From Minisyncoccota bacterium (lineage in GTDB: Bacteria > Patescibacteriota > Minisyncoccia > Minisyncoccales > UBA5738), in contig JBAYLX010000001.1 of assembly GCA_041663885.1 (NCBI GenBank), positions 1 through 47,475 of the forward strand: DNA of 47,475 nucleotides. Direction: 5' to 3'. Under the pieces are notes generated by a model. It worked only from the letters and a program-made list of their open reading frames with translations, ran no database searches and was not told the DNA's origin. Shown piece after piece: positions 5,893-39,521 of the stretch; position 1 is the stretch's first letter; each line of letters begins with the position of its first letter. A program made the position numbers and the translations under genes.

Positions 5893-8526
5893 ATGGACAA
5901 TAATCAAAATTTGCCATCAACATTTGCGGCGGTCGAGCGCGCGCGCTTGGTGCCGCTCGGCTTTATGATCGTAGTTCGAAACGTCAGCGCGTTTTTGCTG
6001 GCCGGATCGCTTTTTATATTCGCGGTCTATCTGCTATTTGGATTGGTGCCGCGCGAATCCGTGGATGCGGTTTTAGGGTTGTTCAAATTGAAATTGCCGT
6101 TGCTTCCCGAAAAATTGCCAGGATTTGTTTTTGCCGCGGATTGTGTGGTGTTTCCGTTTTGGGCAGTTGCCAATCTGGCCATTGGTTTTACCCGCCAAAA
6201 ATTGATGCGTCCCGGAAAGACTTTGGAGGGCGGGATTTCCCGCGGCGATGATTTGCGCGAATACCTTGATTTTGAAGCGGCCGCGGTGGTGAAATCGGCA
6301 ATAAAAAGTTCGCATTTGCCGTTTTCCAAGATTTTGCTTTACCGGCTGTTGAAATCGAAACGGCTGTCGTTCGCGTTCGGGAGGCTGTGCATCGGCGAGC
6401 CTGAATTGGAAAAGCAATTGTTGGGCCAAATGAAAGAAAATTCCAAAAAATTTTCTCACGGAAACAAGTCAAACCTTGAAGATTCAAACCGCGTGATCCG
6501 CGAGCACATTCTTGAATGCGCCGCCCGGATTTCAATTAAGGCGGAAGAACAAAGAATAAATATTTTTACGTTGTTTTTGGCGTTGCTTGATGATGAACCG
6601 AAATTACAGGAATTGATGGATCGTTTACAGCTTTCAAAAGATGATGTTGAATCGGTGGTCCTGTGGCAAATGAGAATGGAAAGTTATCAAAAATACCGCG
6701 CCCGGTTTTGGGAAAAAGATAACTTGCGGCTCAAGCTTTCCGAAAGCCCCGTGTCAATGGCCGTGGGCGGTTATACCGTACTGCTTGATCAATATGCGCG
6801 CGATATCACCATGTCTAATCCTTTGCGTTCGGGCGGCGTGGTTTTGCACGGGCATGAGATTGAATTGCTCGAAGAAGCGTTAATGCAACAGAAAGGTAAC
6901 GGGGTGATACTGGTGGGAGAATCGGGATGCGGCCGCAAAAGCATAATCTATAATTTTTCCAATCGCATGACTTCCGAAAGCAGTCCGGCGCATTTAAGAA
7001 TGATGCGGATAATGGAGATAAATATGGCGTCGCTTATCGGCCGCAATCAAAGCGCGGCGGAATTGACCGCGGTTTTCGACGCGATTTTCCAAGAGGCGGT
7101 GCTGGCAAAGAATGTGATTATTGTCATTCCCGAGATCCATAATTACATCGGGACGCAATCCGGGAAACGCGATACCGCGTCAATTGATATTGGCGGTGTC
7201 ATCGGCGGTTATCTGGACATTCCCGGGTTTCGGATCATTGGTCTGGCCATATATGAAGGGTTCCATAAATGCGAATTACTGGCCGCGCAAATCATTAATA
7301 AATTCAGGAAAATCGAAGTCGCCGCGGTGGGGATTTCCGACACAATGAGAGTTCTTAAGGAGGAAGGTTTGCGCCGCGAACTGGCCACGGGCACTTTTAT
7401 TCCGATTGCCAGCCTTAATGAAATCGTGAAACTGTGCGATTATTTTCTTGGCGACGCGGTGTTTCCCCGCAAGGCGGTGAATTTGCTGGATGATCTGGTG
7501 GCCAATAGAATGAGCCGCGGCGGCAAGGGCAAAAAAAGCATAATGTCGGATGATGTTGACGCTTATTTCACGAATAAATATGAAGTTCCGGCCGGAGCCG
7601 CGGGCCAAAAAGAAAAAGAAGTTTTGATCAATCTGGAAGCGCGCATCCATGAAGGATTGATTGATCAAAAGGAAGCGGTGAGTGAACTTGCCAACGCGAT
7701 GAGGCGCAGCCGCGCGGAGATCAAGCGGCAAAAAAGGACGATCGGCAATTTCCTGTTTCTGGGTCCGACGGGAGTGGGAAAAACTGAAACCGCGAAACAG
7801 CTGGCAAAGGTATATTTTGGTTCGAGCAATAATATGATCCGGTTAAATATGTCTGAATACCAAACAATCGGATCAATCGATAAATTGATCGGCGGGGCAG
7901 ACAATGCCGGATTATTAACCACGGCAATGAGGGAAAAGCCCTTTTCATTGGTTTTGATCGATGAAATCGAAAAATCACACCCGGAACTGCTGAATATATT
8001 TTTAAATGTTTTTGACGAGGGAAGCCTGACGGATGGATTCGGGCGCATGGTTGATTTCCGGCATGCGATCATTATCGCCACATCCAATGCCGGCGCCGAA
8101 AGCATCCGCCAAGAGATTGCCGCCAAGGGCGATTTTGATCCAAATTTTAAGAGGACGTTCATTGATGGCCTTTTGCGCCGCAATGTTTTCAAGCCCGAAT
8201 TTATCAACCGTTTTGACGCGATCGTGCTTTACCGGCCGTTGGGAGTCGCGGAAATCGAGCAAGTGGCCGCGCTGATGCTTAAAGATATCGTGGAAGGATT
8301 GCGCGCCAAGCGGATTGAATTTGAAACAAGCCCGCAATTAGTGCAAGCACTGGCCAAAATCGGTTTTGATCCGGTGTTCGGCGCCCGCGCGATGCGCCGC
8401 GCCATTCAGGACAATGTGGAAAATCCGATTGCCACTGCCCTGCTTTCGAATTCAATCAAGTCTGGGAACAAATTTACCGTTGATCCGGACACCTGGTCGG
8501 TTGCGGTTTCTGCCCGCCCTGATTAG
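5893..8526 (+). CDS. Clp/Hsp100-family AAA+ ATPase (ClpB/ClpC-like) with an N-terminal transmembrane anchor, a degenerate D1 module and an intact D2 module
   Basis: The N-terminus has two hydrophobic helices. D1 reads GESGCGRKS in place of GxxGxGKT, and VIIVIPEIH in place of hhhhDE. D2 has GPTGVGKTETAKQLA, LVLIDEIEKSHPE, IIIATSNAG and the sensor GARAMRR. Confidence 0.8.
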   Translation: MDNNQNLPSTFAAVERARLVPLGFMIVVRNVSAFLLAGSLFIFAVYLLFGLVPRESVDAVLGLFKLKLPLLPEKLPGFVFAADCVVFPFWAVANLAIGFTRQKLMRPGKTLEGGISRGDDLREYLDFEAAAVVKSAIKSSHLPFSKILLYRLLKSKRLSFAFGRLCIGEPELEKQLLGQMKENSKKFSHGNKSNLEDSNRVIREHILECAARISIKAEEQRINIFTLFLALLDDEPKLQELMDRLQLSKDDVESVVLWQMRMESYQKYRARFWEKDNLRLKLSESPVSMAVGGYTVLLDQYARDITMSNPLRSGGVVLHGHEIELLEEALMQQKGNGVILVGESGCGRKSIIYNFSNRMTSESSPAHLRMMRIMEINMASLIGRNQSAAELTAVFDAIFQEAVLAKNVIIVIPEIHNYIGTQSGKRDTASIDIGGVIGGYLDIPGFRIIGLAIYEGFHKCELLAAQIINKFRKIEVAAVGISDTMRVLKEEGLRRELATGTFIPIASLNEIVKLCDYFLGDAVFPRKAVNLLDDLVANRMSRGGKGKKSIMSDDVDAYFTNKYEVPAGAAGQKEKEVLINLEARIHEGLIDQKEAVSELANAMRRSRAEIKRQKRTIGNFLFLGPTGVGKTETAKQLAKVYFGSSNNMIRLNMSEYQTIGSIDKLIGGADNAGLLTTAMREKPFSLVLIDEIEKSHPELLNIFLNVFDEGSLTDGFGRMVDFRHAIIIATSNAGAESIRQEIAAKGDFDPNFKRTFIDGLLRRNVFKPEFINRFDAIVLYRPLGVAEIEQVAALMLKDIVEGLRAKRIEFETSPQLVQALAKIGFDPVFGARAMRRAIQDNVENPIATALLSNSIKSGNKFTVDPDTWSVAVSARPD

Positions 8527-13643: not shown

Positions 13644-13784
13644 TAATTTCTAATTTCTAATTTTAAATTTCTATTAAATTTTCCAATTTCAAATTTTTAA
13701 GCGGAATTTTTGTTTGAAAATTGAAAATTGTTTCATTGAAAATTCAATGAAAATTAGAAATTGAAAATTGAAAATTATTTTTGT
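13644..13784. promoter_or_regulatory. AT-rich imperfect-palindromic intergenic element upstream of gap. Its right half contains a 65-nt block identical to the one upstream of acs.
   Basis: The left arm (tttctaatttctaattttaaatttc...) is an imperfect reverse complement of the right arm (...gaaaattagaaattgaaaattgaaaatt). The 65-nt block 13712-13776 is identical to 14875-14939. Inside it, TTCATTGAA-AA-TTCAATGAA lies at 13732-13751. Confidence 0.6.
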
Positions 13785-14807: not shown

Positions 14808-14949
14808 CAATTTCTGATTTCTAATTCAAATTTCTATTAAATTTCTAAATCTCAAATTTTTAAACGGTTTTTTAGTTTGAAAATTGAAAATTGTTTCATT
14901 GAAAATTCAATGAAAATTAGAAATTGAAAATTGAAAATTGTTGATTTCA
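14808..14949. promoter_or_regulatory. Second copy of the AT-rich palindromic intergenic element, upstream of acs
   Basis: It has the same architecture as 13644-13784. The 65-nt identical block lies at 14875-14939, and the inverted repeat TTCATTGAA-AA-TTCAATGAA at 14895-14914. Confidence 0.6.
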
Positions 14950-18224: not shown

Positions 18225-18467
18225 ATGTTTATGGAGATAATGGAATTCCGGCAAAGTTTGTTTTGGGATGTAAATCCCAAAAATATTGATCCCCAAAAGA
18301 ACGCCCAATATGTGATTGAGCGGATTTTGGATTTTGGCAATGACTTGGAAGTGAAATGGATGTGGGATTATTACGACAAAGCGTTGATAAAAAAAATTGT
18401 TGATAAATCGCGTTGTTTAATGCCCGAAACAAAAAATTTATGGCAATTGATGCTGGCAAGCAATTGA
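18225..18467 (+). CDS. Small hypothetical protein upstream of, and overlapping, the AbiEii-like gene (candidate antitoxin partner)
   Basis: 80 aa, SLFWDVNPKNIDPQKNAQYVIERILDFGN. It overlaps the downstream ATG (18440) by 28 nt. The assignment rests on position only. Confidence 0.4.
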   Translation: MFMEIMEFRQSLFWDVNPKNIDPQKNAQYVIERILDFGNDLEVKWMWDYYDKALIKKIVDKSRCLMPETKNLWQLMLASN

Positions 18468-19120
18468 ATCTTAATTTTGATATTTTGCCCAAAGAAACCA
18501 AAGTTGCTTTGGATTTTTTGAGGGGTCAATCTTGGCTAAAAAATGACGATTGGTATTTGGCGGGTGGGACGGCCTTGGCATTGCAGGCGGGGCATCGAAA
18601 ATCTTTTGATTTGGATTTCTTTAATAAAAAAGGAGTTTTTGATAATGTTGGGTTGATTGAAAATTTTTCGGACAATAATGATTGGGAAATGACCATAAAT
18701 AAAGAAAATACGATTTATGGTAAATTGTCTGGCGCAAAAGTAAGTTTTATCGCCTATCCGTTTTTTGTTCCGGACAAGGAATTCATAAAATACGGCACGA
18801 TAAACATATTGTCAGTGCGGGATGTGGCGGTAATGAAAATCATTGCCATTTCGCAAAGAGGCCGGAAGCGCGATTTTTTTGATTTATATTGGTGCGCGAA
18901 AAATATTGAGCCGTTAGAGGAAACGATAAAGCGATTAAAAAAACAATACCCATCAGTTGCGCACGATTATTACCATATTATGAAAAGTTTGGCGTATTTT
19001 GATGACGCGGAAAGCGATCCCGATTTGGAATTAAATTTTAAAACAAATTGGCTGGAAGTCAAAAAGTATTTCGCAAAAGAAGTACCGCAAATAATGAAAA
19101 AAATAATGGAGTTAAAATAA
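18440..19120 (+). CDS. Nucleotidyltransferase AbiEii/AbiGii toxin family protein (DUF1814)
   Basis: LAGGTALALQAGHRKSFDLDFF is the typical AbiEii nucleotidyltransferase motif, and the size (~226 aa) fits. ATG at 18440 is preferred over 18413. Confidence 0.7.
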   Translation: MAIDAGKQLNLNFDILPKETKVALDFLRGQSWLKNDDWYLAGGTALALQAGHRKSFDLDFFNKKGVFDNVGLIENFSDNNDWEMTINKENTIYGKLSGAKVSFIAYPFFVPDKEFIKYGTINILSVRDVAVMKIIAISQRGRKRDFFDLYWCAKNIEPLEETIKRLKKQYPSVAHDYYHIMKSLAYFDDAESDPDLELNFKTNWLEVKKYFAKEVPQIMKKIMELK

Positions 19121-19167
19121 AAAATTTGAGGTTTAAACAGCCATACTATTAAATCAAAAAATATTTT

Positions 19168-20148
19168 ATGGTTAAGGCGATAGTTTTAAAGCTTGCAAAA
19201 ATTAAATATGGTGGCAAGTCCATTGGCGATGATATTCGCGTGGAAATTGAGGCGATGGGACAGATCGCAACAATTGATAAAAAGATTAAAATTAACACCG
19301 GCGCGGAAATAAACCGCGAAGCGGCAAGGTTTTTAATTGATCAAAAATCGTTTAAGACTGGAGTTAAAATCACCGTGATTGAAAAAGATTTGTTGTTCAA
19401 TGATGTTGGTATTGTTGAGAAAAACATTAAAATTGATGTTGAGCAAGGCAAGCCGCAGGAATTTTCGTTTGAGATTCAAGTGAGAGAAAATCGGTCAGTG
19501 TTGCTGAATAAATTTTGGGGCAAAGCGGTGGCGGTTTTTGAAGTAATTTTGGCGGTAGAAGTTTTTGAAATGGCGCAATATGTGCCGGATAACGATGATA
19601 ACAAAGGTTGGCTTAATATAATACTTGAATCAGACAAAACATTTGTTTCGATTCCTGCATATACAAAAATAAAAACAGAAAAAATTGAGAAAAAAAGAGA
19701 ATATTTTATACCCTTGGAAGGCGCTTATCGTGGAAAATTAGCGACGGTAAAATTAACGGATGACGGTACTTCTCAATTTATTTCCGGAATTGTGCATAAG
19801 CCGATGGCGCATGCTCAATATTCGATTTCCCAAAAAATACTTTCTCTTGGTGATAAAAAGTATAAGGCGGCCGATCATCCTGATTCTCCATGGAAAAAAG
19901 GATTGTACGATATTGAAATTCCTGATTATCCCCATCAAGGCGGCGCAAGATACCAAAAAGATGCTCCGAGGGCTAAAACATGGTTTAGAGTTGGACATAG
20001 CGGGGCGAGATATTTGCATACGGGTATGCAATCGCTTGGATGCCTTACAGTTGTCGAAGTTTCTCGTTGGGCGGAAATTTATAACGCGCTAATAAAGGCG
20101 CGCAAAGGCGATTCTGCCAGTGTGGGCGTACTTGAAGTGATTGATTGA
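19168..20148 (+). CDS. Hypothetical protein whose C-terminal domain resembles L,D-transpeptidase-fold toxins (Tlde1/DUF2778 or YkuD-like)
   Basis: The C-terminus reads PWKKGLYDIEIPDYPH...TWFRVGHSGARYLHTGMQSLGCLTVV...WAEIYNALI...VGVLEV. This contains an H-x(5)-S-x-G-C catalytic-type motif. No signal peptide is present. Confidence 0.4.
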   Translation: MVKAIVLKLAKIKYGGKSIGDDIRVEIEAMGQIATIDKKIKINTGAEINREAARFLIDQKSFKTGVKITVIEKDLLFNDVGIVEKNIKIDVEQGKPQEFSFEIQVRENRSVLLNKFWGKAVAVFEVILAVEVFEMAQYVPDNDDNKGWLNIILESDKTFVSIPAYTKIKTEKIEKKREYFIPLEGAYRGKLATVKLTDDGTSQFISGIVHKPMAHAQYSISQKILSLGDKKYKAADHPDSPWKKGLYDIEIPDYPHQGGARYQKDAPRAKTWFRVGHSGARYLHTGMQSLGCLTVVEVSRWAEIYNALIKARKGDSASVGVLEVID

Positions 20149-20677
20149 TATGAAGTTGCTTAATTTCCGCATTTTAATTGCTGTGGGAGTTATTTTGGCG
20201 GTGATTGTGTTTTTGGTTGGATTTTTTGTTTGGCAAAAATATCCTTTTGGAGTTAAAAAATATAAAACTATTGAAATCGGCATGGCCGCGGCGGAAAAAG
20301 CAAATGATCATATAGTTTGGGCACCGCCGTATGACACTGTTCCCGAGTCGGATTTTTATGTGTATTCTTTAGGTGATGAAGCAATGTGCATCAGTTCGGA
20401 TTGCGGAATGGGGGCGTATTTTGTGGAGTGTCTGGGCGGATGGATTTCTGGCTATAAAGATATCGGCGAAGTGGCTGATTACGGTTTGCGTGAAGTGGGA
20501 GTTAATATCGACAAGCAAAAAATTATCACGATTGCCGATAAAGATGCAAAAATTGTTGGTATTTACCCTGGTGCCGGGATCAGAAATTTGCCCTATATTA
20601 TGAATAACCATCGCAATCTTGCTTCAAAAGAAACTTTTAATATTTGTTGGAACATGATGCCACAGCTATGGAAATGA
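20141..20677 (+). CDS. Hypothetical membrane-anchored protein (candidate immunity partner of the upstream gene)
   Basis: The start overlaps the upstream stop (20141 versus 20148). It has an N-terminal TM helix (ILIAVGVILAVIVFLVGFFVW). No known motif. Confidence 0.45.
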   Translation: MIDMKLLNFRILIAVGVILAVIVFLVGFFVWQKYPFGVKKYKTIEIGMAAAEKANDHIVWAPPYDTVPESDFYVYSLGDEAMCISSDCGMGAYFVECLGGWISGYKDIGEVADYGLREVGVNIDKQKIITIADKDAKIVGIYPGAGIRNLPYIMNNHRNLASKETFNICWNMMPQLWK

Positions 20678-29099: not shown

Positions 29100-29170
29100 G
29101 GGGCGACGGTTCCAATTTGCTTAACCGTTTGGTAAGCGTTATCATTGGGCGACAACCGTCGTCCCTTTTT
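29100..29170 (+). promoter_or_regulatory. Long nested stem-loop ending in a T-tract, immediately upstream of the Bro-N gene
   Basis: GGGGCGACGGTT ... AACCGTCGTCCC form the outer stem, with inner stems CCAAT/ATTGG and GCTTA(A)CC/GGTAAGC. TTTTT follows at 29166-29170. Confidence 0.45.
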
Positions 29171-29218
29171 GGTATTTTTAACCATTTGCGTGGTTCTAAC
29201 CCACGCAATAAAAAAAAT

Positions 29219-30067
29219 ATGGAGGAAAACAATAAATTGATTGTTCTTTTCGATAATGAGCCGGTGCGCCGCGCGTGGAGCCAAAAAGATGAAAAATGGT
29301 ATTTTAGCGTTGTGGATATTGTTAAAGTTTTGGCTCAAAATGATCGCCCGCGAAAATATTGGGACGATCTTAAAAGAAAACTTAAACTGGAAGGAAGTGA
29401 GTTGTCCGATAAAATCGGACAACTGAAATTATTGTCCAGTGATGGAAAGAAGTATTTAACAGATGTGGCCGATGTTGAGGCGGTTTTGCGCATAATTCAG
29501 TCGATTCCCTCGCCAAAAGCCGAACCGTTTAAGCTGTGGCTGGCAAAGGTGGGTTATGAAAGAATGCAGGAAACTGTTGATCCGGAATTGGCAATGGCGC
29601 GGGCAAGAAAAAACTGGCAAATGCGCGGCCAGAGCGATAAATGGATACAACAGAGAATGTTGAGTATTGAGGTAAGGAACAAACTTACCGATTATTGGGC
29701 GGATAACGGCGTTGAAAAAGTGGATGAATATGCTAAATTGACGAACATTATACATAGTGAATGGAGCGGGCTAACAGTTAAGAACCATAAAGATTTGAAA
29801 GGATTGAAACAGCAAAATTTGCGCGACCATATGACCGATGCCGAACTGATTTTCACGGCCCTGGCCGAGCTGTCAACGCGCCAGATCGCCCAAAAAGACC
29901 AAGCGCAAGGTTATGGCGAAAACAAAACCGCGGCACACAAAGGCGGCAAAATTTCCGGCAACGCCCGTAAACAATTGGAAAAACAAACCGGCAAAAAAGT
30001 AGTTACCAAAGAAAATTTTTTAAATAATCGCGAGGAAACCAAAAAAATAGCAAATAATTCAAAATAA
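29219..30067 (+). CDS. Bro-N domain / DinD-like (DNA-damage-inducible protein D family) protein
   Basis: The Bro-N pattern FDNEPVRRAW..EKWYFSVVDIVKVL....RKYWDDLK...DGKKY.TDV..VEAVLRIIQSIPSPKAEPFKLWLAKVG is present. The C-terminus is DinD-like (LKQQNLRDHMTDAEL, AAHKGGKISGNARKQLEKQTG). ATG at 29219 is preferred over TTG at 29117. Confidence 0.65.
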   Translation: MEENNKLIVLFDNEPVRRAWSQKDEKWYFSVVDIVKVLAQNDRPRKYWDDLKRKLKLEGSELSDKIGQLKLLSSDGKKYLTDVADVEAVLRIIQSIPSPKAEPFKLWLAKVGYERMQETVDPELAMARARKNWQMRGQSDKWIQQRMLSIEVRNKLTDYWADNGVEKVDEYAKLTNIIHSEWSGLTVKNHKDLKGLKQQNLRDHMTDAELIFTALAELSTRQIAQKDQAQGYGENKTAAHKGGKISGNARKQLEKQTGKKVVTKENFLNNREETKKIANNSK

Positions 30068-30132: not shown

Positions 30133-33100
30133 ATGGGAAACGAAAAAACATTCAAAAGTTTTGAAGATTTTACGAATTTGTACGAGGTGCAGAAAACTTT
30201 GCGGTTTGAATTGAAGCCAATCGGGAAAACTCAAGAGTTAATTGAGGCTAATAAAGTGTTGGAGAAGGATAAGCTTATTGATGATAATTATCATAAAATT
30301 AAGTATTATTTGGATTTATTGCATAAAAAATTTATAAAAGAGGCGCTTTCTGATATTAGTTTTGATTTGAAAGATTATTATAAAGCTTCTCAAGTCTTGG
30401 ATAAAAAAGATAAAAAAACAAGAGATACTTTGAGAATTGAAGAAAATAAATTGAGAGATATTTTGGCGGTCAAGTATGATCTGAAGGCAAACGAATGGAA
30501 GGAGAAATATAAGGCAAATTTTGATTTGAAAAAAGAAGGGATTGAGATTTTGTTTGAAAAAGACAACCTGAATATTTTGAAAGCAGAATTTCTCGTTAAA
30601 CCGACAAATGATTCAAGCGCGCCGGATATTGAATATTTGGAACCATTAACTGCGGAGAAAGTAAACCTTTTTGATAGTTTTAAGGGGTTCACCACTTATT
30701 TTTCAGGGTTTAATCAAACTCGCCGAAACTTTTACAGCAAAGACGACAGTACAACTGCGGTTGCGAATCGCGTCGTTAATGAAAATTTGCGGCGGTTTTG
30801 CGAAAATATAAAACTTTTTGAAGACAAGAAAAGTAATTACAGAGAAATTGTAATCACTGATGGTGAAAGACAAATTTTTGATATTAATTCATATAATCAA
30901 TGCCTTACACAAGATGGAATTGACCGATACAACGAAGTAATCGGGCGTAAAGCAAAGGATGAAAGTGTAAAAGGATTGAATCAAAAAGTAAATGAATACC
31001 GACAGCAGACTAAGATAAAATTACCTTTCTTCAAGGAATTATATGGCCAGATTATGGGTGGAAAAGAACTGGCATTTCAGGAAGTGGTCATAGAAAGCGA
31101 TGGCAAATTGTTTGATGTATTAGAAGAATTCATTAAATTGAATGACGCTAAAATCAACGAAAGCAAGGAATTGACGAATAGTTTTTTTGAGCATAATGAA
31201 GATTTTGATGTTGAAAAAATTTATTTGAAAAGATTGGCAATCAATTCCATCAAAAAAATATTCGGCAATAGCGCGCCAATATTTGAAAATGCCCTGCCCC
31301 ATAAAGAAACCGCGAGCCGCGAAGAGAAATATAAGTTAGAAGATTTCATTTCTATTGCGCAAATAAGAGATGTTTTGTTGGGTAAGGAACTGGATTTGCC
31401 GAAAAAAATGAAACAGCTTGGCATAATCAGCCAAACAATGGTAGCTGAAGAGCTGTTTAATGGTGCGGACAAAAAATTGATTGCAGAAAATAATTATCAA
31501 ACATTTCTTAATGCGTGGCGGGAGGAGTTTGCCGCTCGCCGTAGTGATTATGAAATCGCAAAGGATGCGGCATTGGAGGTTATTGGGTCTGATAAAACAT
31601 TTTCAAAAAAAGAAAATCAGATAATAAAGATAAAAGAATATTGTGATGCCGCACTGGCGCTTTATCAAATGATGAAGCATTTTGCGCTGGAAAAAGGAAG
31701 CAAACCGGTTGCCGATATTGAAAGCGACAATGATTTTTATAAAAAAATTGATCAATATTGTTTTAACTATCCAATAATCGCCTATTATAATGCTTTTCGT
31801 AATTTTGTAACGAAAAAAGATTATTTGGGACGATTGTTGTTTCCCGGGTTTAACGGCGAGCGGCAAGAGAAAGATTTGCGGTCAAAGCGAGTTCTTGATG
31901 GAGCAGAAAAAATCAAATTGAATTTTGATATTGCCCACGATCACGATTGGGGCGGGTTAGCCATTTTATTTAGGGAAAGAAGTAGTTATTTCATAGGAAT
32001 ACCTGTAAAAGGTAAAAAAGTTAAAATTAAAACAAATGTAGCGGATTATTCTGGTGATGGTTATGAAATGATGGAATATATTCAGCTTAAATTTAAAACA
32101 TTGGTTGGAAAAGGCTATGTTAGCAAATTTGGGGCAAAGTATAGCGAGCAACCAGATTTGGTTGCTATCAAAAATGCCAAAGAATTGATTGCTGAAAAAT
32201 ACTTAAATAAATATCCGTTACTCGGGAATGTATTACATCGTAATTATGATTCAAAGAAAGAATTTGGTAATGATATCGGGGAATTGTTAGATGATTCATA
32301 TGCCCTTAAGTTTCGTGCGGTGAATAAAGATTTTGTTAATAAGTTGAATGAAGGTGGGGATTTGTATTTGTTCTCTATTGAAAGTAAAGATTTTCGCGTT
32401 GGATCAACTGGTAATTCAAATTTGCAAACGCAGTATTTTAACTATTTATTTGATGGTAAAGGTGAAATCAAGCTTAATTCTGCGGTTGAATTATATATGC
32501 GACCTCGGAATATAAATTTGCCCGTTAAAAAAGATAAACAAAATAAAGAAGTTATCGACCATAAGCGTTACGCAGAGGATAAGTATTTTTTGCACATTTC
32601 GATCATTTTAAATTTTGGAAAAGAAAAAATCGGGAATAATGGGGGCGCGATTAAGTCATTTGGAAAAAAATTTAATACCACATCTAATCAATGGTTAATT
32701 AAAAATAAAGATGTAAATATTATTGGGATTGATCGCGGCGAAAAGAATTTAGCTTATTATTCAATAATCGGGCAAGACGGAAAAATGATAGATGGAGGCA
32801 GTTTTAATGAAATTGAGGTTAAGGATCGGAATGGGAATGTTATTCGAACAGTTGATTACGCTGATCTGTTAAGAAAAAAAGCGGGCAATCGCGATGAGGC
32901 GCGGAAAAATTGGAAAACAATAGAAAATATTAAAGAGTTAAAAAATGGTTATATTTCTCAAGTTGTGCGGAAAATATGCGATTTAATTCTTGAACATAAC
33001 GCAATCGTCGTGTTTGAAGATTTGAATGTTGGTTTTAAGAGGACGCGCAGCGCCCTTGATTTTCCCATTTATCAAAAACTTGAGTTGGCATTAGTGAAAA

Positions 33101-34011
33101 AATTAAATTACTTGGTCAACAAAAATGAAAAGTTGGATATGGCCGGCCACTATTTAAAAGCTTATCAGCTGGCGCCGCTTGTCGCCAATCCAAAAGATAT
33201 TGGCAAGCAAACCGGTGTTATCTATTACACTCCTGCCGGTTATACTTCAAAAACTTGTCCGTTGTGCGGGTTTAGAAAAAATAACAATGAATTTTACTTT
33301 GAAAGTATCGAAAAGGCAAAGAAAACTCTAAGCAAATTGGAATCAATTGGTTACGATGAAGTGAAAAAAAGATTTGCAGTTACTTATTGTTTTAGCGATT
33401 TTCAAAGTGATGAAGAAAAAACAAAAGCAAAGAAACAAAAACCCAATGAGCTATATGCAAACCAGGAACGAAAAGATAAATTTACAGTTTATTCCGATGT
33501 GTTGCGTTATCGTTGGCATAATTTAAAGACGGAACGGGCTATGCAGGTAGGCTGCGGAGAGGAGATTGTGGCCGATAGCAAAACGGCAAGGGGGTTGGTT
33601 AAAAAATACGATATTAACGAATGCCTAGTTGGATTATTCGACGGTAAAATTGACTATCGCGGTTCAGATATTTTAAATGAATTGGCCAAAAAAGAATTCG
33701 ACAAGGATTTTTATAAGAATTTATTGCATTATTTGAATTTAATTCTTGAAATTCGCAATTGTATTTCTGATACAAAAATTGATTATATACAATGTCCTGT
33801 ATGCGGGTTTCATTCTGATCATCCCGCCGAAAAATTACGATTAGTAACAAATGGTGATGCTAACGGCGCTTATAATATTGCGCGTAAAGGGTTGTTGATA
33901 TTGGAGAAAATTAGGCGATTTAAGGAAGATATTGAAAAAATAGAATGGAAAGATTTATCAGTGGGGATTGAAGAATGGGATAAATTTACTCAAAAAGATA
34001 GCAAAAAATAA
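30133..34011 (+). CDS. cas12a: Type V-A CRISPR effector Cas12a (Cpf1)
   Basis: 1292 aa. The N-terminus reads FTNLYEVQKTLRFELKPIGKT. RuvC-I is IIGIDRGEKNLAY (D867), RuvC-II is IVVFEDLNVGFK (E962) and RuvC-III is GDANGAYNIARKG (D1242). The Nuc region reads LILEIRNCIS. There is no HNH domain. The gene is followed by cas4-cas1-cas2 and an array with the Cas12a-type repeat. Confidence 0.96.
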   Translation: MGNEKTFKSFEDFTNLYEVQKTLRFELKPIGKTQELIEANKVLEKDKLIDDNYHKIKYYLDLLHKKFIKEALSDISFDLKDYYKASQVLDKKDKKTRDTLRIEENKLRDILAVKYDLKANEWKEKYKANFDLKKEGIEILFEKDNLNILKAEFLVKPTNDSSAPDIEYLEPLTAEKVNLFDSFKGFTTYFSGFNQTRRNFYSKDDSTTAVANRVVNENLRRFCENIKLFEDKKSNYREIVITDGERQIFDINSYNQCLTQDGIDRYNEVIGRKAKDESVKGLNQKVNEYRQQTKIKLPFFKELYGQIMGGKELAFQEVVIESDGKLFDVLEEFIKLNDAKINESKELTNSFFEHNEDFDVEKIYLKRLAINSIKKIFGNSAPIFENALPHKETASREEKYKLEDFISIAQIRDVLLGKELDLPKKMKQLGIISQTMVAEELFNGADKKLIAENNYQTFLNAWREEFAARRSDYEIAKDAALEVIGSDKTFSKKENQIIKIKEYCDAALALYQMMKHFALEKGSKPVADIESDNDFYKKIDQYCFNYPIIAYYNAFRNFVTKKDYLGRLLFPGFNGERQEKDLRSKRVLDGAEKIKLNFDIAHDHDWGGLAILFRERSSYFIGIPVKGKKVKIKTNVADYSGDGYEMMEYIQLKFKTLVGKGYVSKFGAKYSEQPDLVAIKNAKELIAEKYLNKYPLLGNVLHRNYDSKKEFGNDIGELLDDSYALKFRAVNKDFVNKLNEGGDLYLFSIESKDFRVGSTGNSNLQTQYFNYLFDGKGEIKLNSAVELYMRPRNINLPVKKDKQNKEVIDHKRYAEDKYFLHISIILNFGKEKIGNNGGAIKSFGKKFNTTSNQWLIKNKDVNIIGIDRGEKNLAYYSIIGQDGKMIDGGSFNEIEVKDRNGNVIRTVDYADLLRKKAGNRDEARKNWKTIENIKELKNGYISQVVRKICDLILEHNAIVVFEDLNVGFKRTRSALDFPIYQKLELALVKKLNYLVNKNEKLDMAGHYLKAYQLAPLVANPKDIGKQTGVIYYTPAGYTSKTCPLCGFRKNNNEFYFESIEKAKKTLSKLESIGYDEVKKRFAVTYCFSDFQSDEEKTKAKKQKPNELYANQERKDKFTVYSDVLRYRWHNLKTERAMQVGCGEEIVADSKTARGLVKKYDINECLVGLFDGKIDYRGSDILNELAKKEFDKDFYKNLLHYLNLILEIRNCISDTKIDYIQCPVCGFHSDHPAEKLRLVTNGDANGAYNIARKGLLILEKIRRFKEDIEKIEWKDLSVGIEEWDKFTQKDSKK

Positions 34012-34550
34012 TGGAGGATTTTATTCAGATTTCAAAGTTGAATGATTTTGTGTTTTGCCCTTATTCGGTTTATTTGCATTCGGTTTATGAGAGTTTCAAT
34101 CAGAAAACTTATCATCGCACGGCGCAGACGGTGGGGAAAATCGCGCACGAGCCGGTGGATACTAAAACCTATACGACTTCGGCGCATATTTTGCAGGGAA
34201 TGGAAGTCAGTTCCGAAACTTATGGTTTGATTGGCAAAATTGACACATTTGACACAAAAAGCGGGGCGCTGGTGGAGCGGAAATTCAAGATCAAAAAGAT
34301 ATTTGATGGCTATAAATACCAGCTTTATGCGCAAATGTATTGTTTGCGGGAAATGGGATACGAGGTGAAAAGCTTGGCAATTCAGTCGCTTTCGGACAAC
34401 AAGCGGTACAAAATCCAGATGCCGGACAGGGCGGAGCTGGACAAATTTGAAAAATTGGTCAATGATATGCAAAATTACAAAGCTGAGCCGGTTAAAGATA
34501 AAAACCCGATAAAATGCGGGCAGTGCATCTATAAGCCGCTTTGCCATTAG
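34011..34550 (+). CDS. cas4: CRISPR-associated exonuclease Cas4 (RecB-fold with a 4-Cys cluster)
   Basis: An N-terminal Cys (FVFCPYSVYL) and the C-terminal CGQCIYKPLC are present. The nuclease motifs are IGKIDTF, LVERKFK and YKYQLYAQMYCL. The ATG overlaps the cas12a stop (TAATG). Confidence 0.9.
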   Translation: MEDFIQISKLNDFVFCPYSVYLHSVYESFNQKTYHRTAQTVGKIAHEPVDTKTYTTSAHILQGMEVSSETYGLIGKIDTFDTKSGALVERKFKIKKIFDGYKYQLYAQMYCLREMGYEVKSLAIQSLSDNKRYKIQMPDRAELDKFEKLVNDMQNYKAEPVKDKNPIKCGQCIYKPLCH

Positions 34551-34553
34551 GAC

Positions 34554-35504
34554 ATGTTAAGTTTGCCCGATTTTAAAGAGAAGCAGATACTCTTTGTGAG
34601 CGCCAAAGATGCCGAAATCGACAAAATCAAATTCGTTAATGACAATATTTGTTTGTCAAAAAACGGAAAGATCGAGAATCGGATTTCGTGCCACAAGGTG
34701 TTTTCGCTGTTTTTGATGGGCGATTGTTCGCTCACCAGCGTTTTGGTGAGAAATTGCCAAGATTACGGCGTGTCGATTTTCCTTCTGAAAAACAATTTTT
34801 TGAATTATGCGCAAATCGTGTCGCAGGCCGATGGCAATTATTTGTTGCGGGAAAAACAATACGCAATGAGTGCGGCGCAGGATTTGGAGGCTGCCAAAAA
34901 GCTTGTCGGCAACAAGATTTTAAACCAAATCCGCTTATTGGAAAATTCAGATGAAAAAGAAGCGGCGCTGTCTTTGGAAAAAATAAAAGCCAAAATCGGC
35001 GCGGCGTCAAACGCGAAAGATCTGCTGGGATTGGAGGGCGCGGCGGGCAAATTCTTTTTCCAAAGTTATTTCAAGAATCTTGGGTGGAAGCGGCGGATGC
35101 CGCGCGCCAAAACCGACATTCCCAACTTTTTGATGGATATCGGCTACACGATGCTTTTTAACTTCACAGAAGCGACGCTGGGAATTTATGGTTTTGACGC
35201 CTACCGCGGGTTTTACCACAAGCTATTTTTCCAGCGCAAATCATTGGCGTGCGATTTGATGGAGCCGTTTAGGTGCATTATCGACAGGCAGATTGTGAAA
35301 TCGCACAATTTGGGGCAAATTACCGTCGCCGATTTCAAATTGCGCAAGGGTGCGTATTGCATGGGGTTTGAAGAACAAAAGAAATATGTGAATATCTTTG
35401 CGGAAGCGATAATGGAGCGCAAAGAAGATATTTTTTGCTATGTTCGCGATTATTACTATTGCGTGGTTAATGCCGCTAATTTTCCCGAATTTAAGCTGAA
35501 ATAA
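34554..35504 (+). CDS. cas1: CRISPR-associated endonuclease/integrase Cas1
   Basis: 316 aa. PNFLMDIGYTMLF, GFYHK....SLACDLMEPFRCIIDR (the Cas1 His/Asp metal site) is present. The gene lies between cas4 and cas2. Confidence 0.92.
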   Translation: MLSLPDFKEKQILFVSAKDAEIDKIKFVNDNICLSKNGKIENRISCHKVFSLFLMGDCSLTSVLVRNCQDYGVSIFLLKNNFLNYAQIVSQADGNYLLREKQYAMSAAQDLEAAKKLVGNKILNQIRLLENSDEKEAALSLEKIKAKIGAASNAKDLLGLEGAAGKFFFQSYFKNLGWKRRMPRAKTDIPNFLMDIGYTMLFNFTEATLGIYGFDAYRGFYHKLFFQRKSLACDLMEPFRCIIDRQIVKSHNLGQITVADFKLRKGAYCMGFEEQKKYVNIFAEAIMERKEDIFCYVRDYYYCVVNAANFPEFKLK

Positions 35505-35505
35505 T

Positions 35506-35784
35506 ATGTTTATCGTTGCATACGATTTTGAGGATACAAGGCGGCGGAGTAAATTTTCCAAATTTTTGAAAAAATTCGGTCGGAGGTTGCAATATTCGGT
35601 TTTTGAGATAAAAAATAGCCAGCGGGTTTTGGAGAATATCGCCAAAGAGATTGATATGAAATATAAGCCGTATTTTACTAAAAACGACAGTATTGTTATA
35701 ATCTATGTATGCGAGGCGTGCAAAACGAAGGTGAAAAGATACGGATACGCCGCAAATGAAGAAAAGCCGGTTGTGTTCTTCTAA
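35506..35784 (+). CDS. cas2: CRISPR-associated endoribonuclease Cas2
   Basis: 92 aa. MFIVAYDF.D..RRSKFSKFLKKFGRRLQYSVFE shows the Cas2 ferredoxin-fold pattern. There is a 1-nt gap after cas1. Confidence 0.9.
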   Translation: MFIVAYDFEDTRRRSKFSKFLKKFGRRLQYSVFEIKNSQRVLENIAKEIDMKYKPYFTKNDSIVIIYVCEACKTKVKRYGYAANEEKPVVFF

Positions 35785-35962
35785 AATTGAATAGATACAA
35801 AACAAAAAGTAGCAAATTGGTGGAAATTGCAGTGTATCTATTAGAAATTTGAGGTTTTAAACCTTAGTCTTTATGGATTTCATCGCTCTAATTAGCTTAA
35901 AGTCGTTATTCGTAATTTTATCGATAATCGCATCTTTCAAGCTAATTAGAGCTAATCCAGCT
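35785..35962 (+). promoter_or_regulatory. CRISPR leader (AT-rich) with repeat-derived motifs
   Basis: It lies between the cas2 stop and the first repeat. An inverted degenerate repeat copy lies at ~35803-35846. A 14-bp perfect inverted repeat, GCTCTAATTAGCTT (35885-35898) / AAGCTAATTAGAGC (35939-35952), ends 10 nt before repeat 1. Confidence 0.7.
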
Positions 35963-38178
35963 CTCTAATAGGCATATTCAATTTCTACTTTTGTAGATTT
36001 CATTCCAAGATATATAATTACCCGCTCTAATAGGCATATTCAATTTCTACTTTTGTAGATTAGCAACGATGACGACACCGAAGTCGCTCTAATAGGCATA
36101 TTCAATTTCTACTTTTGTAGATAAGGCCGCCCATCGTTGCGCGATAGGCCTCTAATAGGCATATTCAATTTCTACTTTTGTAGATAGGACGCGCAGATAC
36201 CTTGTACCGCGTCTCTAATAGGCATATTCAATTTCTACTTTTGTAGATATTTACAAATTTATCCTCAATTTCGACTCTAATAGGCATATTCAATTTCTAC
36301 TTTTGTAGATAATGCGGATGTTTTTCGAGGTGTATCTCTAATAGGCATATTCAATTTCTACTTTTGTAGATTCGTACGCGATATGACATTTGCAACATAC
36401 TCTAATAGGCATATTCAATTTCTACTTTTGTAGATTTTCGGGCTTTTTAGTTAGTCTGCCGACTCTAATAGGCATATTCAATTTCTACTTTTGTAGATAA
36501 AATGATCTCCTTTCCTGGTATTTGGCTCTAATAGGCATATTCAATTTCTACTTTTGTAGATAATCCTATCTTGCGCCCAACTTCCAACCTCTAATAGGCA
36601 TATTCAATTTCTACTTTTGTAGATATTCGCCGTCATCGACGGCGGTGCCCCTCTAATAGGCATATTCAATTTCTACTTTTGTAGATTGGCGATAATTCGC
36701 AAACGTGGAAACTCTAATAGGCATATTCAATTTCTACTTTTGTAGATTTGGACAGTCTTTGCGGATTTGATGGACTCTAATAGGCATATTCAATTTCTAC
36801 TTTTGTAGATATTTTGGCTATCGCGTCATTGCGATGCTCTAATAGGCATATTCAATTTCTACTTTTGTAGATTCGCATAACTAAATCCGTATTTGCTGAC
36901 TCTAATAGGCATATTCAATTTCTACTTTTGTAGATCGTGGTCTGATAATACGCGGGCAATCTCTAATAGGCATATTCAATTTCTACTTTTGTAGATTACC
37001 ACTTGGGACAAAACCCCTTGTGCCTCTAATAGGCATATTCAATTTCTACTTTTGTAGATTGAAGGCAAACACCCATTTTGTATTTCTCTAATAGGCATAT
37101 TCAATTTCTACTTTTGTAGATCCGCGCCTTGCAACGCCTTTGTGCCCCTCTAATAGGCATATTCAATTTCTACTTTTGTAGATTTGGTTGGTCATTGTTT
37201 TGTAATTAACTCTAATAGGCATATTCAATTTCTACTTTTGTAGATTAAAACTATGGCAATAAAAGAAAAAGACTCTAATAGGCATATTCAATTTCTACTT
37301 TTGTAGATAAAAAAATGAAAAATATTTCAAAAAACTCTAATAGGCATATTCAATTTCTACTTTTGTAGATTTGGTCATATCTCATTTTTAAATTATCTCT
37401 AATAGGCATATTCAATTTCTACTTTTGTAGATATTGAGCTTGAGATAGGTTAGATGTCTCTAATAGGCATATTCAATTTCTACTTTTGTAGATTCGACTT
37501 TTTGGACTCCTACGAAACGCTCTAATAGGCATATTCAATTTCTACTTTTGTAGATGAGTACCCCTGTTGCACCTTGCCTCTTGCTCTAATAGGCATATTC
37601 AATTTCTACTTTTGTAGATAAATTTTCCTCCCCCATTTTGTTATCTCTAATAGGCATATTCAATTTCTACTTTTGTAGATTGATAACCTAAAATCTTCCT
37701 CCCTGGCTCTAATAGGCATATTCAATTTCTACTTTTGTAGATAAGTGCTATCCGCGGGTTAAATCAAGCTCTAATAGGCATATTCAATTTCTACTTTTGT
37801 AGATCCAAGACTCCATTGCTTTGTGGAGTCTCTAATAGGCATATTCAATTTCTACTTTTGTAGATAGGTAGGACAGTTTATTGTGCTGTCACTCTAATAG
37901 GCATATTCAATTTCTACTTTTGTAGATGGGATGGTGCTTTTTGCATAAAACACGCTCTAATAGGCATATTCAATTTCTACTTTTGTAGATTTAAAGTGTT
38001 TGTGCTTGCCGCGGTGACTCTAATAGGCATATTCAATTTCTACTTTTGTAGATGTTGACGCGCATACCACATTTCGGACCTCTAATAGGCATATTCAATT
38101 TCTACTTTTGTAGATAATTTAGGTTTGTGCAAATTCAAACGCCTCTAATAGGCATATTCAATTTCTACTTTTGTAGAT
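35963..38178 (+). CRISPR. Type V-A CRISPR array: 36 identical 36-nt repeats and 35 spacers of 25-28 nt
   Basis: The repeat is CTCTAATAGGCATATTCAATTTCTACTTTTGTAGAT. Every unit was walked: 35963, 36025, 36087, 36150, 36213 ... 38143. Spacer lengths are 25 (x6), 26 (x15), 27 (x12) and 28 (x2). The total reconciles exactly to 2216 nt. Confidence 0.98.
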
Positions 38179-38230
38179 ATAGCAAAATTGTTTATGTGGT
38201 TTTTTGATTTGTGCGTTAAATGTTATATTT

Positions 38231-38282: not shown

Positions 38283-38456
38283 ATGGATAAAAAAATTTCC
38301 GAGAAAAATATTCGCAAATTAACGCGCGCGGGAAAAGTTTCCTTGACGTTTAGCATTCCGCGCGAATTGGTGTTGGATTTGGGCTGGAAAGACGGCCAAA
38401 AAGTGGTGGTGAAAAAACGCGGCAAAGGCATTTTGGTGGAAGATTGGAAAGATTGA
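38283..38456 (+). CDS. AbrB/MazE/SpoVT-family small DNA-binding protein (57 aa; below the ORF-track cutoff)
   Basis: Hand translation gives MDKKISEKNIRKLTRAGKVSLTFSIPRELVLDLGWKDGQKVVVKKRGKGILVEDWKD*. The pattern (v)SltfsIPrel...LgwkdGqkV.v is typical of the SpoVT-AbrB swapped-hairpin domain. Confidence 0.6.
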   Translation: MDKKISEKNIRKLTRAGKVSLTFSIPRELVLDLGWKDGQKVVVKKRGKGILVEDWKD

Positions 38457-38564: not shown

Positions 38565-39521
38565 ATGGAGGGGCGGGATAAAAACAATCAGATTATTATT
38601 TATAATACCGCGGGGGGCGAGACCAAGATTGAGGTGCGGATGAAAGACGAGACCGTTTGGCTTTCGCAGAAGCAAATGGCCGAGCTTTTTGATTGTTCCG
38701 TGGATAATGTTGGTTTGCATTTGAAAAATATTTATTTAGAGGGAGAATTGGCGGAAATTTCAACTACCGAGGAATCCTCGGTAGTTCAAATTGAAGGAGG
38801 AAGGCGGGTAAGCAGGCCAACTATGCTTTATAATCTTGACGCGATAATTTCCGTGGGCTATCGCATAAATTCTTTGCGCGGCACGCAATTTCGCATTTGG
38901 GCGACGCAAAAACTAAAAGAGTATATTATCAAGGGTTTTGTTATGGACGACGAGCGTTTGGCAGAAGGAAGAGTGAAGAAAACTTATTTTGAGGAATGGG
39001 AGGAGAGAATCAGGCGGATTCGGACTTCGGAGACCAATTTTTATCAGAAGGTCAGGGATGTTTTCGCCACCAGCGCCGATTACGATCCCAAAACGGATTA
39101 TGCCAAACTATTTTATGCCAGTGTGCAAAACAAATTCCATTTTGCCATTACGGGGCTTACCGCGGCCGAAATTGTTTCCGCGCGCGTTGACAGTCAAAAA
39201 GAAAATATGGGGCTCACGAATTGGAAAGGCGAGATTATCACCCGCGATCAGGCGCAAATTGCCAAAAATTACTTGGAAGAACTGGAATTGAAAAGATTAA
39301 ACCTATTGGTGGAACAATTTTTGTCTTTTGCCGAATTGCAAAGCGTGGAACAAAGAGTGATGTATATGAAAGATTGGGTTAAAAAATTAGATGATTTCTT
39401 AATTTTGAACGAAAAAGAAATTTTACAAAATTCCGGTAATATTTCGCATTTGGAAATGGAGCGAGTAGTAAGAGACGAGTTGGAAAAATATAATCGGAAA
39501 AAATTAAAAGATAAGAATTAA
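38565..39521 (+). CDS. RhuM-family protein (virulence/Fic-associated family, often found in mobile or defence islands)
   Basis: IIIYNTAGGETKIEVRMKDETVWLSQKQMAELFDCSVDNVGLHLKNIYLEGEL...YNLDAIISVGYRINSLRGTQFRIWATQKLKEYIIKGFVMDDERL closely matches the RhuM family consensus. Confidence 0.8.
   Translation: MEGRDKNNQIIIYNTAGGETKIEVRMKDETVWLSQKQMAELFDCSVDNVGLHLKNIYLEGELAEISTTEESSVVQIEGGRRVSRPTMLYNLDAIISVGYRINSLRGTQFRIWATQKLKEYIIKGFVMDDERLAEGRVKKTYFEEWEERIRRIRTSETNFYQKVRDVFATSADYDPKTDYAKLFYASVQNKFHFAITGLTAAEIVSARVDSQKENMGLTNWKGEIITRDQAQIAKNYLEELELKRLNLLVEQFLSFAELQSVEQRVMYMKDWVKKLDDFLILNEKEILQNSGNISHLEMERVVRDELEKYNRKKLKDKN

Follow-up and report, generated by a model that had tools for sequence, protein, structure and literature searches.

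The 47,475-nt stretch of DNA analyzed here (contig JBAYLX010000001.1 of assembly GCA_041663885.1, positions 1 to 47,475 of the forward strand; hereafter, the window) comes from a Minisyncoccota bacterium and contains, between positions 30133 and 38178, a locus that is very probably a true CRISPR-Cas adaptive immune system of type V-A in a bacterium of the candidate phyla radiation (CPR; Paceibacterota), as judged from its sequence and from a structure model of its effector, Cas12a. By sequence, this effector belongs to a divergent environmental clade, and the CRISPR array is preceded by a conserved leader hairpin that is part of the system. An initial annotation, made from the sequence alone, had proposed a complete class 2 type V-A system in a CPR-like host. 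In agreement with this, all four Cas proteins passed the corresponding profiles, the effector model showed a Cas12a fold, the CRISPR RNA (crRNA) handle was located on the strand of the cas genes, and NCBI labels the metagenome-assembled genome (MAG) as Candidatus Paceibacterota, that is, Minisyncoccota. Type V-A Cas12a has been known as a kind since 2015. Cas12a systems of CPR bacteria have also been recognized since 2015 (PMC6509639). The exact protein is already annotated as Cas12a in GenBank (MFA6375797.1, [quoted passage not shown]), and Cas4, Cas1, and Cas2 of the locus are likewise annotated at NCBI. The remark in the initial annotation that the locus would stand out even without knowledge of Cas12a has therefore no bearing on its novelty: this is one more Cas12a locus, correctly recognized, and the existence of the system itself matters little.

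The effector gene, cas12a (cpf1), was identified by open reading frame (ORF) calling at 30133..34011 (plus strand) and codes for a protein of 1292 aa. This protein scored 610.7 bits (E = 5.8e-183) against the equivalog model TIGR04330 (cas_Cpf1), which has a cutoff of 300, and the best PADLOC Cas12a model matched it at 1.2e-274. Pfam domains REC1 (2.9e-41), RuvC_1, and NUC (aa 1054-1224, 2e-10) were detected. All sequence matches to solved structures at E <= 0.001 were Cas12a proteins: ReChb (2e-130), those of Moraxella bovoculi (Mb), Francisella novicida (Fn), and Lachnospiraceae ND2006 (Lb; about 1e-100), and that of Acidaminococcus BV3L6 (As; about 1e-85). Extending the search of the PDB to E <= 10 returned Cas12a chains and one Cas12e chain (0.013). 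A structure model spanning aa 520-1292 was built with 72 homologs, and the REC lobe was judged by sequence (Pfam REC1). The AlphaFold model reached a predicted local distance difference test (pLDDT) value of 83.2 and a predicted template modeling score (pTM) of 0.80, and its best 50 Foldseek matches in the PDB were all Cas12a (E 1e-44 to 1e-36, TMq 0.60-0.70). Both the profile search and the structural superposition, which had been suggested as checks in the initial annotation, thus returned Cas12a. The putative RuvC triad D867 (IGIDRGE), E962 (VVFEDLN), and D1242 (GDANGAY) was invariant in 119/119 aligned homologs, and so were W927 of the bridge helix (motif W927-KTIENIKELKNGYISQVV) and R1208 of the Nuc domain; the reference residues in Fn Cas12a are D917, E1006, and D1255 for RuvC, R1218 for Nuc, and H843, K852, and K869 for the RNase site (PMC11127173). 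The NCBI model of the protein is 1270 aa long and starts at an internal TTG, corresponding to residue 23. Since this start would remove the beginning of the gene (window 30133-30198) and with it a conserved N-terminal motif, FTNLY...KTLRFEL, that aligns with other Cas12a proteins, the 1292-aa model is the better one; its ATG at 30133 is used by JGI, ENA, and a sister strain (see below) and fits the family alignment.

Three further genes follow cas12a on the plus strand: cas4 (34011..34550, 179 aa) and cas1 (34554..35504, 316 aa), both of the type V-A subtype, and cas2 (35506..35784, 92 aa). The cas4 ATG overlaps the effector stop codon in TAATG at 34009-34013, and gaps of 3 nt and 1 nt separate cas4 from cas1 and cas1 from cas2, respectively. 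The four ORFs, the overlap, and both gaps were found where the initial annotation had placed them, and the AT-rich leader and the 36 identical repeats that it had described were also confirmed in the sequence: the leader comprises 178 nt (35785..35962, plus strand; 69.7% A+T), and the array (35963..38178, plus strand) contains 36 repeats of 36 nt (CTCTAATAGGCATATTCAATTTCTACTTTTGTAGAT), with 36/36 copies identical, the terminal one included, and 35 unique spacers of 25-28 nt (26 nt, n = 15; 27 nt, n = 12; 25 nt, n = 6; 28 nt, n = 2). The 3' end of the repeat is AATTTCTACTTTTGTAGAT on the plus strand, i.e., the cas strand. The repeat was predicted to fold as .....................(((((....)))))., at -4.8 kcal/mol, with a 5-bp TCTAC/GTAGA stem and a TTTT loop in its last 15 nt, as described in the initial annotation. 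The energy of this hairpin alone was not significant (z = -1.6); the same handle was present in 66/66 related arrays retrieved.

Further features of the repeat and of the window were in line with a type V-A system. In the repeat, TCTA is found at position 2 and again at position 22, and TAGA at position 32. Cas1 from F. novicida recognizes palindromic TCTA/TAGA repeat ends (PMC13034035), and the window repeat, having these sequences at both ends, matches the palindrome used by that protein. No complement of the repeat of at least 13 nt was found in the window outside the array; this indicated that there is no anti-repeat like that of a trans-activating crRNA (tracrRNA). No spacer matched the window itself, which would have pointed to self-targeting. 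Repeat-like units upstream of cas12a have been described by Shmakov et al.; none was found here within 8 mismatches of the repeat. The claim that the window codes for no other effector type also held, since models for Cas9, Cas3, Cas10, or Cascade were not among the 25 strongest matches listed in a PADLOC scan of 32 non-cas ORFs (at least 110 aa); Pfam annotation of 30 other ORFs of the window pointed to housekeeping genes. At the far end of the array, the last repeat is intact, as it is in the sister strain (L001), and is followed by the trailer ATAGCAAAATTGTTTATGTGG and then by a T-run (repeat and trailer region, window 38143-38210). For other V-A arrays, terminal repeats disrupted by mutations have been reported; with an intact copy, a trailer-derived "extraneous" crRNA could be made.

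The adaptation proteins were assigned with subtype-specific models in the case of Cas4 (TIGR04328, cas4_PREFRAN; 219 bits, cutoff 70, 4e-65) and Cas1 (TIGR04329, cas1_PREFRAN; 328 bits, cutoff 300, 5e-98) and with TIGR01573 in the case of Cas2 (55 bits, cutoff 24.5, 6.4e-15). Cas4 contains cysteines 16, 169, 172, and 178 and residues D78, E89, and K91 of its motifs, and residues E161, H222, D234, and E237 of Cas1 are invariant among the Cas1 proteins of the clade. The N-terminus of Cas2 (MFIVAYD) contains D7, and the equivalent residue is required for full-site integration in F. novicida (PMC13034035). Four contigs (L001 among them), each recovered in a different sample, represent a sister strain of the window bacterium. 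Compared with the window, this strain has an 87% identical effector, a cas operon that is 86% identical at the DNA level, the same repeat, and a leader that is 82% identical (147/179). The two strains have no spacer in common (17 in the sister strain, 35 in the window), and this complete turnover of spacers between them indicates that acquisition happens in nature.

A natural target was found for the sister strain. Its newest (leader-proximal) spacer matches, at 26/27 positions, contig L006, which is 4 kb long and comes from a sample that also yielded one of the strain's arrays. The single mismatch lies at the end distal to the protospacer-adjacent motif (PAM), and, read on the crRNA-sense strand, TTTC flanks the protospacer on its 5' side. 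Contig L006 encodes a terminase large subunit (phrog_38, 1e-94) and lacks repeats, which identified it as a phage contig. The same phage fragment was present in three samples (protospacers at L006 279-305, L007 4088-4114, and L008 2226-2252); as the two further samples contain the same protospacer site, they add up to one independent PAM instance. A search for relatives of the phage through its terminase had given the site in these two further samples and, in addition, a 73%-identical phage without a spacer match, and no new match was obtained when 987 spacers from 66 arrays were compared with all the DNA retrieved. In L007 the protospacer lies within a small gene (3882-4160; DUF5659) near the terminase gene, and in the target phage fragment genes for a sugar epimerase and a hexapeptide-repeat protein (Pfam Hexapep) adjoin that for the terminase. 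This single natural target suggests that the clade still reads TTTC. The intact catalytic residues, the spacer turnover relative to the sister strain, and the TTTC-flanked phage protospacer together give good, if indirect, support to the statement in the initial annotation that the system is functional and competent for adaptation.

Several observations weigh against assigning the locus to a working type V-A system, and the first of them concern the effector. The RNase segment preceding RuvC-I (RPRNINLPVKKDKQNKEVIDHKRY) is about 16-19 aa shorter than the Fn/Lb segment ...THPAN.PI.NKN...YDLIKD(K/R)R(F/Y)...; it lacks the piece that bears H843 in Fn, and D809 stands at the aligned position of Fn K869. 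Residues H810, K811, and R812 come after D809, and K798 and K799 are nearby. The canonical K-D pair occurs in 46/119 homologs and is replaced by His in [D/N/E]HKRY in 40/119, and the nearest clade is variable at this site (QN, QH, and RH variants). Self-processing of the pre-crRNA by the window effector, which the initial annotation took over from what is known of the Cas12a family, would still be plausible, without backing from the canonical RNase residues. The second region is the PAM-interacting (PI) domain, for which a conserved Lys and the GWxxxK motif have been described as PAM-interacting features (PMC7757703). In the window effector, GWxxxK (GWDxNKE) is replaced by DHDWGGL and MLPKV (LPGANKMLPKVFFS) by FKTLVGKGY (LKFKTLVGKGY), and the Pfam domain PF22222 (Cpf1_PI-like) was not detected. 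The PI domain is much shortened, aa 541-760 barely match any solved Cas12a, and an insert of about 25 aa, modeled with low confidence, precedes KIKLNF; a folded domain was still predicted in this region by the aa 520-1292 model. The rebuilt RNase pocket and the shortened PI domain suggest that processing residues and PAM contacts probably differ from those of Fn, Lb, and As Cas12a. As a further difference from textbook Cas12a, a zinc ribbon formed by C1042, C1045, C1221, and C1224 is present as an intact CxxC...CxxC. The clade of the window protein is represented by 12/119 homologs, and all of these atypical features (RNase segment, PI domain, and zinc ribbon) are common to them. As natural Cas12a proteins whose PI domain is smaller and non-canonical and whose RNase pocket differs, the members of this clade may be useful: these two regions are targets of Cas12a engineering (PAM range and multiplex processing).

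The remaining points of this kind concern expression and targets. Scans for sigma-70-like promoters and for terminators gave no excess over shuffled sequences and no site in the leader, so that no promoter was assigned. The T-rich PAM proposed for the system comes from one site, that of the sister strain. No target was found for the window spacers searched: the window array gave matches at chance level alone against GenBank phages, exact 22-24-mers of window spacers 1-4 and of spacer 1 from the sister strain had no match in IMG/VR, and window spacer 2 had none in a metagenome collection from which the window's own contig was not recovered either. The search of spacers against viral DNA proposed in the initial annotation was thus productive for the sister strain, with one TTTC-flanked phage target, and not for the window spacers tested. 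This lack of targets would fit a decaying or silent remnant that provides no immunity. We consider such a remnant highly improbable, since all ORFs are intact with their catalytic residues conserved, 36/36 repeats are identical, the spacers have wholly turned over relative to a strain whose cas operon DNA is 86% identical, and one spacer of that strain matches a PAM-flanked phage site almost perfectly. The assignment as a genuine type V-A immune system was therefore retained.

The zinc ribbon and the atypical PI region also bear on the mode of action of the effector. Cas12a2, Cas12a3, and Cas12a4 are RNA-triggered proteins; these clades use Cas12a-type repeats together with cas4-cas1-cas2 and retain a zinc ribbon (PMC12851939; PMC9811890). 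An effector of this kind would respond to transcripts of the phage and, in place of cutting the target DNA, bring about abortive infection through collateral nuclease activity or tRNA cleavage. The window protein keeps the four cysteines of the ribbon, its PI region is atypical, and the orientation of the known protospacer would let the crRNA pair with mRNA as well. The TTTC PAM corresponds to a GAAA flank on the target strand and thus does not discriminate between DNA and RNA modes, and neither does the orientation of the protospacer. However, Cas12a2 is defined by a large domain that replaces the bridge helix and by a zinc finger that replaces Nuc (PMC9811890), and the window protein combines a canonical bridge helix (W927) with the Pfam NUC domain (aa 1054-1224), has the conserved arginine of Nuc (R1208), and passes the Cas12a equivalog model at twice its cutoff. 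Furthermore, chains of Cas12a2 or Cas12a3 were absent among the PDB matches at E <= 10, provided that entries for them are contained in the 2026 copy of the PDB. Membership in the Cas12a2/3/4 group was accordingly rejected, on the presence of the bridge helix and Nuc and the lack of a PDB match to Cas12a2 or Cas12a3 chains, and an RNA-triggered effector is extremely improbable here. The preferred reading remains a DNA-cutting Cas12a.

The leader provided a second distinctive element. An inverted repeat of 14 bp is present in it, and between the window and the sister strain the arms of this repeat show compensatory differences; both hairpins were more stable than shuffled sequences (z = -4.6 for the window and -5.0 for the sister strain; 0/200 shuffles each). 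More distant members of the clade showed the same hairpin plan. A scan of a genome collection seeded with Cas1 of the clade yielded a set of 69 V-A loci, mostly from CPR or DPANN MAGs, and a three-part hairpin was predicted in 33/35 distinct leaders carrying AAGTCG and ATCTTT blocks. It consists of an outer stem of 11-15 bp that varies in sequence, conserved AAAG/CTTT pairs that enclose an internal loop, likewise conserved (TCG...TTTG[CT]AT), and an inner hairpin that is again variable. In an unfitted, structure-unaware MAFFT alignment of these 33 sequences, 82.9% of the cells paired, versus 66.0% in shuffles; 20/25 pairs changed on both sides, with a covariation of 0.44 versus 0.16 in shuffled alignments (0/500 reached it) and of 0.07-0.15 in slid registers.

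A covariance model (R1) was built from the 33-sequence alignment. In at least 51 CPR-type V-A loci, it detected one site per locus just upstream of repeat 1: the window element at 35881..35957 (plus strand; 65.5 bits, E = 5e-12) and those in L001 and L011-L059 (e.g., L019 7306-7382 and L036 7334-7408). Elsewhere in the 773 kb searched on both strands there was no match; on the minus strand, these sites themselves gave weaker echoes. The model also recovered the element in loci lacking the exact anchor words, including that of Peregrinibacteria GW2011_GWA2_33_10 (L036). In the fitted 51-sequence alignment, which leans towards the structure, 25/25 pairs changed on both sides (covariation 0.51 versus 0.16). 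The element is about 77 nt long, and the R1 match ends 2-6 nt before repeat 1 in 44/45 loci. RNAalifold predicted no pairs in a MAFFT alignment of 6 leaders because the hairpin arms are out of register in it. Rfam gave no match in the leader at the gathering threshold, and at E <= 10 its one hit was a chance microRNA match (13 bits, against a gathering threshold of 211). No description of the hairpin was found in a limited check of the literature, so that an earlier one may exist. An intrinsic terminator was considered and ruled out, since no T-run follows the hairpin and the terminator scan was silent.

The leader hairpin, which is self-contained, is part of the system. As to its role, our best guess is that it forms a structured 5' leader of the pre-crRNA; a function at the DNA level, in leader-polarized integration or as part of the promoter, is possible. 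Counts of G.U versus A.C in the hairpin (44 versus 35) were indecisive as to the strand that folds, and V-A integration in F. novicida in vitro requires no more than 3 nt of leader (PMC13034035). The hairpin is a clean, testable element, and in organisms with minimal genomes it could shed light on the expression of V-A arrays or on the way in which their polarity is maintained.

The hairpin also enters into the question of how crRNAs are matured. A DNA-cutting Cas12a whose crRNAs are matured by other residues (e.g., H810, K811, R812, K798, or K799) or by a host RNase, with the possible participation of the hairpin, would account for the deleted His-bearing segment, for the Asp at the position of the general-base Lys, and for the frequent replacement of the K-D pair by His among homologs. 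Processing by SuCas12a2 depends on Lys784 and Arg785 of its predicted processing site (the Methods of that report list K784A and K785A; PMC9811890), which shows that the processing chemistry is not fixed across the wider family. In addition, when effectors were screened for the canonical RNase His motif with a crude pattern, it was found in 0/32 loci with the hairpin and in 6/21 loci without it. This correlation is confounded by shared ancestry, and a later covariance-model match (L050) may break it. Moreover, even the nearest clade varies at H810 (QN and RH variants), and neither the handle nor the AAUU that precedes it departs from the canonical form, which suggests an unchanged RNA that is bound in an unchanged manner. 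On balance, maturation by such other means is a real but unlikely alternative to self-processing by a type V-A Cas12a. Slightly better placed, and still tentative, is a broader proposal for the CPR-type V-A systems as a group: that they combine a rebuilt processing pocket and a compact PAM domain with arrays that need a structured leader element for crRNA biogenesis, transcription, or integration.

Based on these data, a pathway can be proposed in which transcription, processing, cleavage chemistry, and PAM breadth are as we infer them. The overlapping and abutting ORFs suggest that cas12a-cas4-cas1-cas2 would be expressed as one operon. The array would be transcribed from the leader side on the cas strand, as the orientation of the handle and the conserved leader suggest. 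The pre-crRNA would then be cut upstream of the AAUUUCUACUUUUGUAGAU handle, giving crRNAs with the 5' handle and a 25-28-nt guide; this is the least certain step. The Cas12a-crRNA complex would bind double-stranded DNA at a 5' T-rich PAM (TTTC in the one instance from the sister strain) and form an R-loop, after which, by homology, both strands would be cut by the single RuvC site (D867, E962, and D1242) with the help of R1208 from Nuc. Finally, by homology with F. novicida, Cas4-Cas1-Cas2 would take up fragments flanked by a PAM and integrate them at the repeat next to the leader.

The genomic context of the locus suggests a mobile or horizontally acquired island. The cas genes have 31-36% G+C, versus a window average of about 44%. 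A gene for a Bro-N domain protein (29117..30067, plus strand; Pfam Bro-N, 7.8e-09) precedes cas12a, and the sister strain has a 90% identical protein at the same position. Homology between the two strains extends from about 29000 to the end of the array (L001 6400-14430) at about 85% DNA identity, and the flanks on both sides are unrelated; Bro-N, cas genes, leader, and array thus behave as one module in different contexts. The rest of the window fits the chromosome of a fermentative CPR bacterium, with genes for FeFe-hydrogenase, GAPDH, acetyl-CoA synthetase, PPDK, class V FBPase, ClpB, and the ribosomal proteins L25 and S2.

Other features of the window were recorded as well. Directly 3' of the array, a 57-aa ORF (MDKKISEKNIRKLTRAGKVSLTFSIPRELVLDLGW...; 38283-38456, plus strand) had no Pfam match and looked AbrB/MazE-like by eye, and it is followed by a RhuM-family gene (38565-39521, plus strand; Pfam 9e-99) that also matched the PADLOC candidate defence family PDC-S05 (3e-129). 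A gene for an AbiEii-type nucleotidyltransferase toxin (Pfam 2.7e-15) is located at 18413-20677 (plus strand) together with two ORFs without a Pfam match; the 18-22 kb region is a second stretch of low G+C (36-40%) and may be a defence or toxin-antitoxin islet. The PADLOC candidates PDC-S13 (1.7e-121), DolB (5e-32), and PDC-M37B (3e-28) matched one non-cas ORF each, and a housekeeping ATPase, such as that encoded by the ClpB-like gene at 5893-8526, is a likely source of these matches. Tandem arrays of the heptamer TTGAAAA (about 9 copies) occur in two intergenic regions, at 13644-13776 and 14877-14940, just upstream of the genes for GAPDH and acetyl-CoA synthetase, and the 11-mer TAGAAATTGAA recurs at 13755, 14918, and 23869. 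The ORF at 33-3140 (plus strand) codes for a 1035-aa protein with six LVIVD repeats and a Peptidase_S74 domain, which is the intramolecular chaperone of endosialidase tail spikes and is usual in phage tail fibers.

Compared with the characterized Cas12a systems, the locus has the gene order cas12a-cas4-cas1-cas2-leader-array of those of Fn, Lb, As, and Mb. It also shares with them a 36-nt repeat ending in AAUUUCUAC-loop-GUAGAU, the lack of a tracrRNA, the RuvC D/E/D triad, the bridge helix, the Nuc arginine, the overall fold, and, at the single natural protospacer (that of the sister strain), a TTTC PAM. The effector is distant from these proteins in sequence: solved orthologs were matched at E 7e-102 to 2e-84, and canonical homologs of the Bacteroidota type are 30-32% identical. 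Unlike them, it has lost the His-bearing segment of the RNase site, carries Asp at the position of Fn K869, and shows the insert of about 25 aa and a shortened PI domain devoid of GWxxxK and PF22222. Its zinc ribbon is an intact CxxC...CxxC, whereas canonical enzymes have D-T...S-A, and the terminal repeat of its array is not degenerate. The best solved match was ReChb, a resurrected ancestral Cas12a (PDB 8qwd, 8qwe, and 8qwf; sequence 2e-130, fold 1e-43, TMq 0.70), which, in contrast to the window effector, has the canonical H...K...K RNase segment.

The closest systems are those of other CPR/DPANN genomes. The loci of Candidatus Wolfebacteria (GCA_016219675.1) and Peregrinibacteria GW2011_GWA2_33_10 have the same operon layout and handle, and the nearest CPR/DPANN clade has the same non-canonical RNase segment, zinc ribbon, and PI remodeling as the window effector. 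Apart from the 87% identical protein of the sister strain, no CPR/DPANN Cas12a was more than 55% identical to it, and a limited check of the literature returned no functional data for its clade. The leader hairpin is common to at least 51 loci of this type, including L036 from Peregrinibacteria. Cas12a2, Cas12a3, and Cas12a4 resemble the window system in their Cas12a-type repeats, adaptation genes, and zinc ribbon, and differ from it in that both the bridge helix and Nuc are still in place in the window protein, which has no detectable match to their structures. Conserved leader structures beside the first repeat are also known from type II-A (Cas9) and type VI-B (Cas13b) systems, where the hairpins pair the leader with repeat 1 and control its processing (PMC13187072). 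In V-A systems, it is the end of the array away from the leader, and not the leader end, that would give rise to an extraneous crRNA (PMC13187072). Unlike the II-A and VI-B structures, the V-A hairpin has both arms within the leader, ends before repeat 1, and contains a conserved internal loop of its own.

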